Assembly (NCBI GenBank): GCA_964106645.2
Contig: OZ067051.1
Strand: one strand, 5' to 3'
DNA length: 64,000 nt
From: Podarcis pityusensis
Taxonomy: Eukaryota
Under the pieces are notes generated by a model, which was not told the origin of the DNA, did no database searches, and saw only the letters and a program-made list of their open reading frames with translations. This document shows, piece by piece, positions 1,527 through 22,234 of this stretch; the first letter of the stretch is position 1; each line of letters begins with the position of its first letter. Both the position numbers and the translations under genes were made by a program.

Positions 1527-4500
1527 GATGAAACAGGTGCCTACTTAATAGACAGAGATCCAACCTACTTTGGACCGGTGTTGAATTATCTCCGACACGG
1601 GAAACTGGTTATCAATAAAGACCTCGCAGAGGAAGGTATGTTTTGCTGTTTAGGAAAACTGCTTTAATGCTTGATCATAGCTGTGAAAAATCACTTTGGG
1701 TGTAATTGGTTTCACATATGCAAAGCAGGGCGGCCTGTTTGGGCTGGGCTAGTTTGTAGCATTGCTGTGCAACTTGCACTGGCCTTCAGATCTTGAGACC
1801 TGAATGATCCTTTAGAAACCAGGATTTGGCACCTGAAGTGCTGTGAGGTCACTGTTTTGGGGAGGTTGTTGGCTGGTGCATGACCTACCTGGAACACTCT
1901 CCTTGCTCCTGGGCTTTCTCTTTCTGCTTTGGTCTTGGAGCAGAGGCCTTGCCTTATCCTGACCAGGGCAACAGTTCAGAGGGACAGTCTGCCGCTTGGC
2001 CACGCAGTGCCTCTCAGGGCCTGTTTGTGACACAGACTTTCTCACATGTAGCTGGAGTTTTATGAGGCCCTCTTTTGACTTTGTGTTCCCCTCCAATCAG
2101 GTGTGCTTGAAGAAGCTGAATTCTACAACATCACATCCTTAATCAAACTTGTAAAGGACAAAATAAGGGAACGAGACAGCAAAATCTCACAGGTAGGACC
2201 TGCTAGTTTTTTTTAAATTTGATTTGTTTTTGAGGTAGCCTTGGCTTGACTTCATTTCATAATGTGTGGCTGTGTTTGGTGCCCAAACTGAGGGAATTAT
2301 GAGAAGTGGCTTCTGGTGGTATCAGATGCCATTTTTCCTTCCGTGAGTGAAATGTTTGTGCTTGTGGCAATGCCAAAAGGGAGGAGGGCAGCAGAGAGAT
2401 CTCAGCAGAGGCTGAGGCAAGTGGCTTTTTTGCACTCTGGAGCTCAGTGGTAACGGAGAAGGGACTCATTTGGAAGACATGATGGTTGAAACCAGTGGCC
2501 ATTCTTGGCCTGCTTCATCTTTCAGCTGTCTCTCTGTGTTTTTCACCAAAGGTGCCAGTCAAGCACGTTTACAGGGTGCTGCAGTGCCAGGAAGAGGAGT
2601 TGACTCAGATGGTCTCCACCATGTCTGATGGCTGGAAATTTGAGCAGGTAAGAGAACGGGAAGCAAACACTTCAATCTTTCAAGGACCATACAAACAAAC
2701 AAAAAAGCAGGCGAGAGGAGTGTGAGGGTTGGAATAATTGTGGGTGTTGTGGGCTTGGGTCCTGGAATGGTCAGGAAACTCAGACAAATGTTTGTACTTT
2801 TACAGCAGTTTGCCTGGTTGCTCAAAGTGCGTCACATATTAACTCTAGTTGTTTCTTAAAGTAACTCTGTAGAGAAGGACAATATCATTATTTCCCTACT
2901 GGGAATAAGCCTTTGGATGTGCCACTGAGCTTGTGCCTTAGGAGATGCTTGATTTGCAGCTTATACTCTCAGCCTGAGTTGCACCTTCTTGGCATTTCCA
3001 TGGGAAATCACACAGCAGGCACGAAGCACTTCATTCCTCCAGCACTGTGCCATGTGGCCATTTCAAGGCAAAGATCCATTTGCTCCACTTTTTATGTAGA
3101 GAGCTCTTGGAAACATAGTCCTCTGGGATTAACTCTGGTGGTGGTATGAACACTGTTACACACAAAAAACAGCTAAAAATTAGAAATTCTTGTAACTAGG
3201 CTCTAAACTGTAGCCATGTAGTTATGTTTGTCCACCAAGATGCCATGTCAGTGCCAGTGCTTCAGACCCTGCCATCAGTATTGCAGTACTGATCAGATCA
3301 CTGGTATTTGTTTGTACAAGCACCACAGCTCTCTGTGGTGGAAGATTCTCAGTTAATGGAGATTTGGAGAGCAGGAGGAATCAAGCAAAATCTTTTTGGC
3401 TCAGAACTGTCCCTCAACAGGCACTAGCTCTCCAAGAGCAAAGAAGAGTGTGGAATCCCCACAACTATGTCTCTGGGCCTGTATTTTGTACATCCATTGT
3501 GGATGGCTCTAGGCCTGCAGTCTTCCTTCTGTGCAACATTCTAGGAGTTTCACAGCTGTGTGTTTACACAGTCAGTGCTCTGTGTGGTCAGGATTGCTTA
3601 CACTCCATGTGAAACACTGACGCCTCCTATCTGCATAATGCCACACTCTCCTGCCTGAGCATGAATTATAGGAAGGGACAGGGGCCACTCTTAATGTTAG
3701 ATGCCCCTTGTGGGAACAGGAAGGAGAGAGCTCCACCTTTATTTAATAGCCCAGAATGTTGACAGTCAGAGCTTTGGTTGTAATCCCTTATTAAGTTCTG
3801 TCTGAAGCACAAGAACAGCCCCCCTCAGTTGTCTCTCTTTCCCACCTCCAGCTAGTCAGCATTGGATCTTCCTATAACTATGGGAATGAAGACCAGGCCG
3901 AATTCCTTTGTGTTGTTTCCAAGGAGCTGCACAACACCCCTTATGGCACGGCCAGTGAGCCCAGCGAAAAGGCAAAGGTGAGTCATCTTCAGGGTGGAGC
4001 AAGGCCCAGCTGCTGCCTTCCTCTGCCATCAAAGGTTGTTTGCCAGTTGCTACTAAGAAAGGAGCTTGCTTGGGTATCCTCTGCCCACCCTTTCTCAGGT
4101 GTCCAAGCACAAGACACACATGAGCACACTGAGCAGTTGTCGAAAAAGGAGGCTCCAACATCACACCTCTTATGCAGGAGCAACAGTAAACCAGCCTTGG
4201 GTGTGATAAAGCACTGAGGTGCCTTCATAAGCCATTTTAGGCTTCTGTCCATTTCAATGCTGTTAAACTCAACTGTATGAAGATACCCTGCCCCATGCAA
4301 AAAGAATCTCTAATGGTTATGGATGTCTAATCCTCAAACACCCAACTCCCAAAGAGCAGCTAAACCTTTTTTCTGGAAAATGATAGGTGCTATTCTAGGT
4401 GTGCCTGCATCTGGGTGCAACCCAAAAAACACAGACGCACCCACCAACGCGGAAACCTTCATTTATTGCAACCAAAAAATAAAGGCATATAAATCACATT

Positions 4501-7500
4501 TCAGTGTCAAGGCTAATTTATGTATGCCAACACAGGCATGCCTTGTTGGCCTTGAATATAAGCCACACTTTCCCCCCAAATTCCGACCGTGAAAAGTGTG
4601 GCTTATATTCGCGACCTTATGGTATGCAGCCAGGAGTGCGGGGCAAACAGCGGCAGGAATGCGGCAAAGTAGTGCCCGCCCTGCATGTAGTTCCCTATCT
4701 TCTCCCTCAAGACCAGGAAGGGAGAGAACAAGGAAGGGGAAAGGCCGCCGGCAATACAGCACAGCTCCCCCTTCCCAGTATGCAACCAGAAGCAGCGAGG
4801 ATGGGAGCGGCTTATATTCAAGTATATTTTCTTTTCCCCCCTCCAATTTTAAAGGTGCAGCTTATATTTGGGTCAATATGGTATATAGACTGGCAGGTGC
4901 TTTTGATTCTAACACACCCATAACTCGAAGCTGGAGAATTTAAGATGCCCTGTATTGGGAGAAGGAAAGGTAGGGTATCCCATGACTTCAGGGTTCTCTT
5001 TCTTTCTAGTTTCCAACTTGAGGTACCCAAAGTTTCATGGCCTTAAATCCAGCAAAAGCTTTCCTTATGAGTGCAGGGTGAAAGAGGCAAAGTGGAGCTC
5101 TGAGGAATTCCCCCCACCTACACAATTCAAAGCCTTGCTACTGAAATACACTTTTAGTGAAACTTGATCAATAATGTCAATGATGTTCTTACTTTCGAGA
5201 AAGTAGTGAGAGTCCGGTGTGTGGCTAATATCTCCTGTCCTGGGGCCGACGTGGAACCCAATTCCGGCTGTCAGCTCCTCTGAGTTAAACAGTCCCTTGA
5301 TCTACTCCTAGCTTTTCCATAAATCATGGCGAGAAATTTCCCTCTGGCCTGAGAAAGCACTCTGCTGACAGGACTATAATTAGAGGCCCTGCCCTTGGTT
5401 GCCAATGTTATTGTCTGGCTGCTCTGCTGCGGTTAAAATCAGGATGTCTGTGTTCATGTCATGTGGCATTCAGTAGAGACAAAAGGGTCAGAATTCCGGG
5501 GGATGGGGGAGAGAAAGGCAAAGGGGCATATGTCCCAAGATGCATCAGGCCTATGCCAGGCTACAGTCGACTGAGATGAACCAAGGTTCTGGTGTCATAC
5601 ACCATGCTTGCATAACTGTTAATTAACACAGTCGTGCCATGGGCATAAGTCAATGCCAGCCCTCTCTGCACATTTTTCATTGAGTTTTCAACATAAAATA
5701 CAATGAAAGCCAAACTAATCCAAAGAAGATAAATAGGCACACAAAAGAAGACAATAAAGAAGTAGAAAATGAAGAGAAGAAGAAAAAAACACAAGCTTCT
5801 CTATCATAATTATATCTTAACCTTTATTCCACACACAGACGGGTGAACCCTCCCACCTGGGAGCTTCCTCCTCTTCCCCCAGCCTCCCTCCCTGGGAGAT
5901 CCTCTCTGCCCTGCCCCTTGCGCTGGGCCCTTCATCTTCCATCCATCTGCACCTTTTTAAATGAAGCTGCTGCTGCTGTTGTCCAAGAAGCTGGCAAACA
6001 GTGTGCCAGGCAGCTTGGAAGCAAATGTGCGATTTCTGTATCACTGTCCTATTTCACTCTCTACCTTATGCTTTCCCTTGGCCTTCGGCTTTGTAAACAG
6101 ACAGCGAGATTGTAGAGTGATTGTTTCTGAAGGTGCAAATGATGTGCCAGATGCTATAGTTATGTTCAGAAAGATCTAAACTTCAAGATCCTTGCATGAA
6201 CTCCTGAATTAATGAAGAGGGCACAGATAGAAGGCAAGGTCTTTTGTGTTCATCTGGCACTCTTGCATTGTGTGGCATTTGCATGCTAGAGAGAAGTGGC
6301 CATGCTGGGATTTGTGCCTGTTGAGAAGGAGGAAGATGATGTTGGAGTTGGGTGAATTAGTAAAGGTGCAAGGCAGAGCCCACAGACACGAGAAAGCCCA
6401 GCTTCTTGCATCTTCACTAATGGCCAGTCATAGTTCAACAAGACCTCTGGCACACGAGGTGGAATCCAGGTGTCCTTGCAGGCATGAGTGCTCTCCAGCT
6501 CACACCCTGCAGAGCAGCTGCTAACCAGCTAAGAAACTGTTTGGATGTTTATCAGGAAAGGTTGTATGGGGGTGGGGTGATGGTGGCTGGGACACAGGGC
6601 AAAGGGACAGGCATCTCTCTGAGTTCTTTTGAAGAGAGAGGTGGCTCTTATGCACATCCTTAAGAGTTTGCTTTTAAATATATCAACAAAAAAACAACTC
6701 GGGCTCCCATGCCCAATTAAATCTTGATTAACCAAAAAAAGTTGGTTGGGGGAAGTTAGACAAAAGGAAGAGGGAATATGGAATTACAGCATCTGAGCCA
6801 GACACCCAGAAAGTTACTAAACTGCTTTCACATGAAAGCACATAAATTAGAAATACTGTTTTTGGTCTGTGGACGAAAGTTCAATTTCCAGTGTTTCCAG
6901 GCTAGTAATGTTTAGCCACCAAAAGGTGGGATTTGACCATAAACTATTTGCCTCTTCTGGATGTGAAACCTATGGGATGGTAACCAGTGACTTACTCTAG
7001 TGCAAGGTGAGGCACTCCATTTTCAACACACCCACCTATTGCAGCCCCGTGTGCCATGTCCCTTGCTTTGCCAGAGGGTCCTTGACACTGGATATGGGTG
7101 TTTTGCTGCTGCTTGGCAGCTTGACAGCTGTTTTCAGTGGTGGTTCGCCCTCTTCACACTGTGGTGGCTTTTTCCTTGCGCTGTAGCTGCTCTTCCAGCG
7201 GTTGACTGGCTGGCTGCACTGTTGGATTGCTTCTGTGATCAACTCGCAGAAGACTCTTCTGGGTCACCCTTCACAATTCAGGGGCTGGCTTGGACAGAAG
7301 TCTCTTGCTAAGACAAATCCAGGCCAGACTTTTCCGGATCTCTTTCCTCAATCTCCTTGTGTAGGGCAGCTGTTGAAGTGAATGGGCCAGTTGTCCAAAG
7401 ATCACCAAGCAGAAGCCTTGAATCCTCTCTCAGGCAGCCTGGGGACGTTTATACTTTACTCACCTTGCACTCTTTTCTTTTCCTTTCCTTCCTGCTCTTT

Positions 7501-10500
7501 GCACTTGCTTCATGAAACTCAGAGTGAAGACGAAGAGACGGATTACGATATGAATGACTCAGATTAAGTGTGAATGCCATGGTGAGCACTAGGACTTCAC
7601 CCACCTGCCTGTCCTCCCTCTGGCCTCTCCCACTGGTGCATCTTGTTTTGTGTTTGTAGTTGCTGCCTTGACCCTGTTGCTGGGTAGCCGTAGGCCCCTA
7701 GACTGCCTAGTGGTCCACTTGTGTTGGCTCCTTTACTTCCTGCTGCTGTTTCAGAGGAAATGTGTTTTTGTGGCTCTTCTCACAGGGAGGAAAGCAAGAC
7801 TCCACCAGGGAACCCATCTGCTTTTCACTTTAGAAAACCAGGGGAAGGTAGGGGCCAAAAGGTCTGAGTTGCAGTCGCCTTCCTATGATGGCCACAGACT
7901 TTGGGTTGCTTGCTCTTTTCTTTTTTAAACTAGTACGCCTTCAGGAATTCCGGATTGCATGCCATGAAACATAGTCTTCAATCAGATGTCTACAATTGCT
8001 TTCTCTTTAAGTTTGGGTGCAGACTTCACATCTGCTATGAGAGCAGGGGAAACAAATTGGAAAGAACTCTGTGTTTGTGGAGAAAGTGGATAGAGTTTCT
8101 TTCTCCCTCATAATGCTAGAATTCAGAAGGGTCATCAAGGAAGCTGCATGCTGGAAGATTCGGGATAGAGAAAAGGAAGTGCTTCCTAACACAGTGCACA
8201 CTCCTGCAAGATGATGGCTTTGAAAGAGGATTAGACAGATTTATGGAGGAGGAGGAGGAGGAGACTGTAGATAGCTATGAGGCCCATAGCCAGTATTGGA
8301 GGCAGTTGCTGAGGAGCGTAAGTGGGAAGATGGTGCACCTGTTGCACTGATATTCTGCTTGTGAGCTTCACAGTGGTTGATCACTGTGATAACAGGATAG
8401 TGGACTAGATCCAGCAGGTTCATTCCAAGAGGAGCCTCCTGCTCAAAAATAATCTTGGTTCTTCGCTTTCTGGAGGGAACAGCCTCATGTTTGCAGGCCA
8501 GCCTCAAGACTGGCCTAACGATTCAAAAAGAGCAGAAGGATTGTCACCATGGCTGCCAGAGCTGTAGCAGAAAGTTGGTCTGGTTCTTTTGCTGAGTGAG
8601 CAGACTATAAGTGTGTACACCTTCCCTGTTTTGCCATGATGAAAGGAGAAAGAGGTGGGGAGAAGGGTGCCAGGAGTCTGAGTCAGGAGGTGTGAACTTT
8701 TCCAATGACGGCTCTACCTGAAAGCAGCACTGGGATGGGCTGGAAATTCCCTGTGCTTCACACACCCGTAATGTGCCCTTCCTCCAAGTATATAAAGCCC
8801 TGCATTACTGTGTGAGGGACTGGCCTTGAGCTACCTAGTGGATTCCACAATCAAGGTCCTGAGTTGTTTTTAATGCAGCTGGTGTGTTGTTGACTCTTAT
8901 TTCCCCAGCGACAATCTAGTAAAAGCAAGGCATGTTGTGTTTTTCCCTGCTTGCCCTGAGTGGGGATTTGTCCCTGTTCAAGGCCAACACTATCCATTTT
9001 CATCAGTGCTGATGCAAAGAGGAGAAACAGGTGAGGATTTTACAGAGAAGGTCCCTGGGAATTCTTTGGATGAGGAAGAGGCCTAGTGGAAACTGCAGGT
9101 GTTGCTGGCCAAATGACGCAGTGCTGAAACAACAACACACACTGTGTTGGCTACAAGGGGTATTTTGCCCTGAGATGTTTTGGGTTCCCAACATGCCAGT
9201 GCTATTAAGCAGATAAGGGTCTTTAAAAATAATAATGATTCATGTTGTTATTTGAACTATCTTATCCTTGCTTGGTGAAGCCAAGGAGTGAGGCTCCTTG
9301 ATTCTCTGGCAGAGCCACTGAGTTCTCCTTAGTCCTCGTCCTCCTCAAGCAACACAGATAGTGGCCTGGAATGTGGCTCTTTGGTGCCCTTCCCAGGTCC
9401 TTCAGTTGAGGGCTGAAAAGTACCTCTGGTCTGTACTGCTCATCCCCAGGCGAGGAGGAAGGCAGCAGCTTATGGGCAACCGAGGCCAGCTGTGAAGTGT
9501 CAGAGTGCACAGCCTGCCACAGCAACACCTTTATTTCCTGTTCTTGGCCAAGGTGTCTCCAAAGTGACTTGGAGTTTTATGGTGGTTTCTTCTAGTAGTT
9601 GATGTCATCATCACCCAGGTTCCAGGCAGGGAGGAGGCAGCCAAAAGGGTTCTCCAACCCTGATACAGGGCAGGATACTTAATTGCTAGAAAAATCTATG
9701 AAGCCAGGATATTTACAAATATTTCCTTAAGAGTGTGAAGTTATACCATGGAACTATTAAATCTCAGTAACTAGATCCCAATTGCCGAAAATTTGATAGA
9801 GGGACCTTACAATTGTCTAAAAATGTGCTACACATTTCTGCCTCAAAGAGGAGAGTGAAGTGTACCCCCTCCCAATTAAAGTGCATAATCCTTCAATATT
9901 GTATATACGCAAACTAAGAGACTGATGACTGGACACACCGGAAAGTGGGGTATTAGTACATCTTTCTTTGGAAAAGGTTGACAGGCTGCACTGTATTAGA
10001 AACTTTAAATCTAGCACACTCGCCACTGAAGACATCCTCATTGCTTGAAAAACAATAAAATAAGCACTAAAGGGAGGGCATCAAAACTGGAGCAAAGAAA
10101 CCAGGCAGGCATGGTTCTGCAGCCTCAGGTTGTGATCTACAACTGTTGTTCACTTGAATTAACCTTTTGGAGGGGAGGGGGATTTCCAGTAGCTGCACCC
10201 CTACTTGCAGATTTCAAACGTCATACTAATAAATGCTATAGAGTCATAGAATTGTAGAGTTGGAAATGGATCTCCGAGGGTCATTTAGTCCAACTCCCTG
10301 CAATGCAGGAATCACAGCTGAAGAATCCCTGACAGATGGCCATCCAACCTCTGCTTGAAAACCTCCAAGGAAGAAGACCCCACACTTTCCGAGGGAGTCC
10401 ATTCTACTCTCAAACACTTCTTACCACTAATGCTTAGTGAGAACATAATCAGCAAAATGAGCTGTTGATTGCATAAATGGCCCATTTTTTAATCCACAAC

Positions 10501-10841
10501 TGTTCTTTTCAAACTGGGAGCTGGACCACTCACATACACTGGCCTAGTTGTACAGCCTAGCTAGTTTTGTAGGGAATGGGTGAGTCTGGCCTGTTGGCAG
10601 TTCCCTTAATTAACTTCCTATGTTTTGAGTAGCAGCTGACTGCCTAGTTCACCATCATGTGCCAAGGTGTCTTGCGTCAGAGAACAAAATCAGTTTGTTT
10701 GCCTGTTTTAAGGTTTTGCCTTCAAGAATGCCGGAGTCTTTCCACTGTGTGAGTCTTGCTGGAGAACCTTACCATGCAGAATCTCACCACTTTTTGTTTG
10801 TTTCCTTCCAGATCTTGCAGGAGCGAGGTTCAAGGATGTAA
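1527..10841 (+). CDS. KCTD5: BTB/POZ domain protein KCTD5 (CUL3 adaptor), 5'-partial, coding exons 2-6
   Basis: Exons 1527-1635, 2101-2192, 2552-2647, 3852-3977, 10812-10841, all AG/GT-flanked and in phase. They translate [150 protein letters not shown]. The residues and the neighbouring genes favour KCTD5 over KCTD2/17. Confidence 0.95.
4538..4885. mobile_element. Tc1/mariner-pogo-type non-autonomous DNA transposon (MITE)
   Basis: Imperfect terminal inverted repeats TGCCTTGTTGGCCTTGAATATAAGCCACAC / GTGCAGCTTATATTTGGGTCAATATGGTA, internal repeats of GCTTATATTC, and a TA at the right end. Confidence 0.65.
7523..7581 (+). CDS. KCTD5: Candidate alternative KCTD5 cassette exon encoding acidic C-terminus [14 protein letters not shown]
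   Basis: Long pyrimidine tract (about 7463-7510) then CAG acceptor at 7520-7522. Phase 0 matches exon 5, stop TAA at 7565-7567, donor ATG|GTGAGC after 7581, and 3 CpGs in 45 nt. Confidence 0.6.
8075..8420 (+). mobile_element. CR1 LINE 3' fragment (decayed)
   Basis: GATGGCTTTGAAAGAGGATTAGACAGATTTATGGAGG ([12 protein letters not shown]), followed by 3'UTR ending TGGACTAGATCCAGCAGG. Confidence 0.65.
10238..10425 (-). mobile_element. CR1 LINE 3' end
   Basis: ATAGAGTCATAGAATTGTAGAGTTGGAA...GGTCATTTAGTCCAAC is the reverse complement of the CR1 hairpin plus TTCTATGA tail. Confidence 0.75.

Positions 10842-17324: not shown

Positions 17325-17350
<26 letters not shown>
15950..17350. promoter_or_regulatory. 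CpG island / UBE2I promoter
   Basis: Very GC- and CpG-rich block with GC boxes (GGGGCGGAG about 16224, GGGCGGAAC about 16393), directly upstream of and covering the first UBE2I exons. Confidence 0.9.
16545..16670 (+). other. UBE2I: UBE2I non-coding first exon (5' boundary approximate)
   Basis: Donor ACG|GTGAGG after 16670. Its GAGACAAA...(GCC)n...GCTGCGGCCGC layout resembles the mammalian UBE2I 5'UTR as recalled. Confidence 0.6.

Positions 17351-22234
<4,884 letters not shown>

Follow-up and report, generated by a model that had tools for sequence, protein, structure and literature searches.

A conserved retina-type alternative exon in the last intron of KCTD5 of Podarcis pityusensis and its possible bearing on free G-beta-gamma

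We are confident that the last intron of KCTD5 in Podarcis pityusensis, studied here in a window of 64,000 nucleotides of one strand (all positions are those of this window), holds one conserved alternative exon and not an array of them, and that this exon is real and of photoreceptor type. The explanation towards which we lean slightly is that this conserved cassette, at 7523-7581 and likely a Musashi-dependent photoreceptor exon, would swap the basic G-beta-binding helix at the end of KCTD5 for an acidic tail, likely weakening the CUL3-dependent degradation of free transducin beta-gamma. The features on which the argument draws are the following.

1536-1635, 2101-2192, 2552-2647, 3852-3977 and 10812-10841, + strand: coding exons of the 3' part of KCTD5 (translation)
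3852..3977, + strand: penultimate coding exon of KCTD5, 126 nt, ending in ...SEKAK (translation; joints in 4/4 RNA-like contig sets)
7455..7522, + strand: branch-point-like TACTCAC, long pyrimidine tract and CAG acceptor (AG-free zone and tract rank; branch point by eye)
7523..7581, + strand: stop-containing cassette exon, 59 nt, 14-aa tail, stop ending at 7567 (identical tail in 16/283 and related tail in 43/283 proteins)
7582..7731, + strand: donor ATG/GTGAGC and six UAG triplets (7590, 7657, 7685, 7691, 7699, 7708), likely a Musashi element (UAG count)
10812..10841, + strand: canonical last coding exon, ILQERGSRM and stop, switch-helix residues 226-234 (joint 3977-10812 in 4/4 contig sets; 156/283 proteins)

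The last intron of KCTD5 and its alternative exon

Exon 3852-3977 is 93-100% identical to most of the proteins named KCTD5, and two paralogues elsewhere in the genome, with KCTD2-like and KCTD17-like exons, show 79% and 76% identity to it. The exons of UBE2I, which follow KCTD5 at 17325-22231, support the assignment to KCTD5 rather than to KCTD2 or KCTD17. UBE2I (UBC9) lies on the same strand and starts about 6.5 kb past the KCTD5 stop, and several database gene models fuse KCTD5 with UBE2I or PDPK1. All four KCTD5 exon joints were found in 4/4 RNA-like contig sets from related animals. The last intron (3978-10811) is in phase 0 and spans 6834 nt, whereas the three visible introns upstream of it have 465, 359 and 1204 nt, and a sequence-only reading of the window, which had singled out a 6.8-kb phase-0 intron longer than the others, was right on both counts. 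The length is nevertheless ordinary for the gene, because the counterpart intron in mouse measures about 6.5 kb by the coordinates tabulated with PMC4991804 and part of the window intron consists of repeats. An interspersed element of about 280 nt, present in 40 or more copies of 70-80% identity, occupies 5670-5950, and deep multi-copy cover extends over 4469-5150, 7879-8560 and 9925-10606, with the TGCATG hexamers at 4682, 7956 and 8145 sitting in bins of such cover. Towards the 3' end of the intron, contigs in two sets (X1 and X2) run from the intron into the last exon over 10349-10839 at a depth of 6-7, which suggests slow splicing or retention of this end.

Among four acceptors proposed by the sequence-only reading (5200, 6101, 7523 and 8983), 7523 alone stands out, by its AG-free zone, its tract and its conservation at the protein level. 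The AG-free zone of 83 nt is the longest among the 536 AGs of the intron, and the pyrimidine fraction of 0.75 ranks third. Past the stop of the exon lie tandem donors (7568-7587), with the GT at 7570 giving an exon of 47 nt and the GT at 7582 one of 59 nt, both with the same protein. The longer form has the length of the retina exon in mouse and human and the shorter that of the chicken exon, and both end at GTs of the window.

When sorting 283 proteins by what follows EKAK, we found the canonical tail in 156, an acidic tail in 43, a reading into the intron in 52 and something else in 32; these counts are not to be taken as frequencies, because the set is a non-random sample (120 of 874 matches, 119 cluster members and 44 new proteins among 120 of the 190 matches to an acidic-tail query). 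The acidic tail is identical to that of the window in 16 of the 283. Its 43 holders, which are mostly database gene models, come from catshark, zebra shark, sturgeon, gar, bichir, teleosts, frogs, turtles and birds, and also from three lizard genera and six mammal genera. From sharks through sturgeon, gar, bichir, teleosts, frogs, turtles and birds to lizards the tail is near-unchanged, it is 14 aa long with its stop fixed at codon 15 in 42 of the 43 proteins, and its net charge lies between -6 and -9 in all of them. The mammalian tails drift (for example SDDEDEGHPGSGSD), yet their length stays at 14 residues and their charge between -6 and -8. A search of the 20 kb that follow the KAK exon in each paralogue of this genome, KCTD2 and KCTD17, found nothing that matches the acidic exon.

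In the four RNA-like contig sets, whose tissues are unlabelled, the inclusion junction 3977-7523 was not among the 15 joints displayed, out of 43; the only last-intron joint seen was 3977-10812, in 4/4 sets. One contig of these relatives crosses 7416-7669 unspliced.

A further exon of 34-44 aa was observed in 36 of the 120 first-collected proteins, from sharks, fishes, amphibians, turtles, birds and marsupials. It looks as if the next exon (LVSIG...SEFLLIVSREV) had been duplicated in tandem, and its position corresponds to intron 2648-3851, in which no convincing trace of it was found (best E 0.017, an unrelated stretch); it was present in 0/16 squamate proteins inspected. This exon may be mutually exclusive or a cassette, may alter the G-beta-binding domain and may have been lost in squamates.

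Retinal inclusion and splicing control

The alternative exon itself is already catalogued, and the window copy is probably a new orthologue. Judging from position, length and annotated proteins, it is likely the same exon as the retina cassette of mouse, human and chicken (MmuEX0025234, HsaEX1018507 and GgaEX2015417; 'RetLONG'; PMC9303857, PMC4991804 and PMC6952364), which the accessible tables place in the same gene and the same intron with the same length of 59 nt, or 47 nt via the second GT in chicken, and annotated proteins have an acidic tail of 14 aa at that junction. The tabulated values of PMC9303857 are 17.1 in retina versus 0.12 for the human exon (59 nt), 50.5 versus 0.07 for the mouse exon and 19.9 versus 0.07 for the chicken exon (47 nt). 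In the supplement of PMC6952364, the mouse Kctd5 exon is given as chr17:24053272-24053330 (59 nt), with RT-PCR primers and a PSI of 74 in rods, 17 in olfactory neurons, 3.8 in Purkinje cells, 1.5 in muscle, 0.37 in brain and 0.25 in testis. Brain, muscle and testis, which the sequence-only reading had named for a junction search, would therefore miss the real exon. The supplement of PMC4991804 lists an inclusion of 0.51-0.70 in wild-type retina versus 0-0.14 in retina without photoreceptors, for an exon that adjoins one of 126 nt; by its coordinates, the mouse exon upstream of the cassette has the length of exon 3852-3977 in the window. In the accessible parts of these papers, the exons appear as table entries or as an RT-PCR target, with the encoded tail undiscussed, and a retina pattern is known for mouse, human and chicken. 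Among titles and the starts of abstracts, a search outside which most subscription papers lie, we found no paper that links the exon to G-beta-gamma or treats the function of the isoform.

Upon examining the 150 nt past 7582, we counted 6 UAG triplets, four of them within 26 nt, a level reached in 1.2% of intron windows and in 0/2000 local shuffles. The cluster is informative by its position only, because 165 of 200 shuffled introns contain a window with six UAGs at some place. Another such window of the real intron is at 10498-10690, directly upstream of the canonical acceptor. The accessible text of PMC4991804 describes clustered UAGs downstream as a mark of Musashi-activated photoreceptor exons and RBFOX as unexpressed in mouse photoreceptors, and the cluster of the window indeed lies in the proximal downstream intron. 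The sequence-only reading had instead invoked Rbfox, from TGCATG motifs at 6193, 6280, 7956 and 8145, all of which we confirmed together with one more at 4682. However, five copies compare with 3.2 expected, and at least five occurred in 113 of 500 shuffles; the motifs nearest to the exon lie 375 and 564 nt downstream of 7581, with no enrichment close downstream. Regulation by Musashi is likelier than regulation by Rbfox, given six UAGs directly downstream and no excess of Rbfox motifs over chance, and the sequence makes Musashi control of exon 7523-7581 likely. In the accessible peer-review file of PMC6952364, the authors' reply reports that the Kctd5 exon is gone after Msi1 knock-down in mouse. 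MSI1 would be insufficient for inclusion by itself, because its overexpression in two human cell lines left the human exon uninduced (dPSI -0.75 and -0.26). A look for Kctd5 in the searchable supplements of PMC9509328, on Msi1/Msi2 knockout, found no entry.

Predicted charge reversal in the switch helix

As described in the accessible text of PMC11047111, residues 222-234 of KCTD5 form a basic 'switch helix' that lies on an acidic hotspot of G-beta (D228, D246). Deletion of the tail lowers the affinity about 10-fold, and its loss reduces, without abolishing, ubiquitylation in vitro and gives no G-beta drop in cells; the tail is there rated of 'secondary importance' for binding, and the binding data used G-beta1-gamma2, as against transducin's gamma1. 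The last intron falls inside this helix: exon 3852..3977 codes for its first four residues, the canonical last exon codes for residues 226-234, identical to the family tail of the solved protein (CRL3-KCTD5/G-beta-gamma, PDB 8U7Z-8U84; PMC11047111), and the alternative exon would swap these nine residues, net +1, for fourteen residues, net -8. The one tail change that the structure study covers, in its accessible part, is full deletion (L209*; PMC11047111). Predicted folds have a terminal helix for the canonical tail and a coil for the acidic tail (10-sequence alignments; pLDDT 40-50) and carry little weight because of their poor quality, with a mean pLDDT of 47 and 41.

The paralogue KCTD17 resembles KCTD5 in that splicing past the shared KAK exon alters the tail (PMC10348674; 10.1101/104893). 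Its isoforms that diverge past the same domain differ in G-beta-gamma binding, with the long isoforms not binding in the data accessible in PMC10348674, and one isoform binds trichoplein via its own C-terminus (10.1101/104893). KCTD17 has several longer tails, whereas KCTD5 has a single conserved alternative of 14 aa.

Granted that the exon is real and of photoreceptor type, our judgement tilts, by a little more than for the explanation as a whole, towards its main job being to weaken the targeting of G-beta-gamma. That it detunes CRL3-KCTD5 with respect to free transducin beta-gamma is what we infer from the replacement of the helix by a net charge of -8, from the KCTD17 precedent and from the movement of transducin beta-gamma in rods, where it leaves the outer segment under bright light according to the accessible text of PMC2151643. 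The proposed course is that the exon would be included in the retina of this animal, that the mRNA containing it would escape decay, and that the acidic tail would fail to bind, or would repel, the acidic hotspot of G-beta, while the main G-beta contact and CUL3 binding would stay intact. Partial inclusion would lead to mixed pentamers of graded avidity; by calculation, random assembly at a PSI of 74 gives 22% all-acidic pentamers, the rest being mixed. Photoreceptors would thereby detune CRL3-KCTD5, and light-released transducin beta-gamma would be spared degradation. KCTD2 could compensate, because it keeps the basic tail and no acidic exon was found in the 20 kb searched in this genome. In the accessible text of PMC2151643, phosducin is likewise a photoreceptor device that acts on the level and translocation of free transducin beta-gamma. 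Phosducin shields the substrate, whereas the KCTD5 exon would detune the ligase adaptor. Phosducin is also reported to block ubiquitylation.

The near-invariance of 14 residues in non-mammals exceeds the need of a plain loss of binding and leaves room for a gained partner. We weighed a photoreceptor exon whose acidic tail brings a gain of function (a new basic partner, a substrate, a kinase, or a localisation in ciliated sensory neurons), with the G-beta-gamma effect secondary, and consider it unlikely though worth serious attention. Between sharks and birds the tail hardly varies, even at the uncharged Y, M and N, and it reads as CK2-type sites. Olfactory neurons include the exon too, at a PSI of 17 in the supplement of PMC6952364, and the KCTD17 isoform that binds trichoplein by its own C-terminus (10.1101/104893) offers a precedent. 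However, no partner is known, and in mammals the middle of the tail varies freely under constant length and charge, a pattern that suits charge better than a motif.

Less probable by a clear step is a regulatory use of the exon, whose stop would reduce or inactivate KCTD5 in photoreceptors through decay or instability, its acidic residues being a by-product of purine-rich splicing enhancers. The exon does contain a stop and starts with a GAAGAC/GAAGAG-type sequence, and no detection at the protein level was found. Stops within 50-55 nt of the last junction usually escape NMD. The stop of the exon lies 14 nt before the last junction with donor 7582, or 2 nt with donor 7570, which is within this zone and unlike a poison exon, so that escape from decay is expected. 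The steady-state PSI of up to 74 in rods (supplement of PMC6952364), the level of Kctd5 mRNA, which does not differ between wild-type and photoreceptor-less retina (log2 0.10), and the stop at codon 15 in 42 of the 43 proteins likewise speak against such a role.

Other candidate tails and implications

The four swappable, Rbfox-controlled tails of the sequence-only reading all translate as it had written them, but as an array they are very improbable. Under a simple weight matrix, its two donors less than 20 nt past a stop come 7th (7582, 14 nt past) and 2nd (9031, 18 nt past) among 371 GTs; acceptor 6101 has the second-longest AG-free zone and two TGCATG motifs 80-170 nt downstream, and 8983 has the second-best donor of the intron. 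However, one tail is conserved, from sharks to mammals, and the tails at 5200, 6101 and 8983 occur in 0/283 proteins. Apart from the acidic family, which matches at 7523, no other non-canonical tail reaches a match to the intron below E 0.001, and the accessible rows of the mouse retina table of PMC4991804 hold one cassette in this intron. Units of an AG, a pyrimidine tract and a tail of 4-27 aa number 73 in the intron, compared to a mean of 99.8 in 100 dinucleotide shuffles, and of the five units that pass an AG-stop-donor filter, three were absent from the list of that reading. What survives of it is the existence of a tissue-regulated alternative tail that would affect how G-beta-gamma is handled, possibly in mixed pentamers; the array does not, and neither does Rbfox control, with TGCATG at chance level and RBFOX absent from mouse photoreceptors in the accessible text of PMC4991804.

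Taken singly, the three remaining candidates look like chance. The tail KVV...CQLL at 5200..5283 (+ strand) is rejected, with a GAG acceptor, no usable donor up to 55 nt past the stop and 0/283 proteins. The tail TARL at 6101..6115 (+ strand) is unsupported, with a good tract, weak donors only (best -0.02) and 0/283 proteins, and so is ANTIHFHQC at 8983..9030 (+ strand), with a strong donor, an ordinary acceptor (AAG) and 0/283 proteins. The AAG is by itself insufficient to exclude 8983, because the genuine KCTD5 acceptor at 2552 is AAG too; 8983..9030 would be at most a lineage-specific cryptic exon. Least credible of all is that the switch alters localisation by taking away a C-terminal peroxisomal signal (-SRM). 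The tail of zebrafish Kctd5a gives weak peroxisomal targeting of EGFP, but full-length human KCTD5 is cytosolic, with no peroxisomal signal (both PMC8919083).

Returning to the weakening of G-beta-gamma targeting as the preferred reading, we put forward a broader version tentatively, at somewhat less than even weight: since the jawed-vertebrate ancestor, photoreceptors, and in part olfactory neurons, may have used a Musashi-driven exon that reverses the charge of the helix, with mixed pentamers tuning free transducin beta-gamma in the manner of a rheostat. Free G-beta-gamma is degraded through KCTD5-CUL3, and bright light makes rods release large quantities of transducin beta-gamma. A conserved photoreceptor exon that takes out exactly the helix in contact with G-beta and adds the opposite charge offers a direct and inexpensive test of G-protein protection in photoreceptors. 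The exon itself is no discovery, and the proposal gives one of the many Musashi-dependent retinal exons in the catalogues a concrete molecular effect. If true, it would explain how a cell in which light liberates free G-beta-gamma in very large amounts avoids the ligase by which it is degraded elsewhere, and loss of the exon would contribute to the degeneration that follows Musashi loss.
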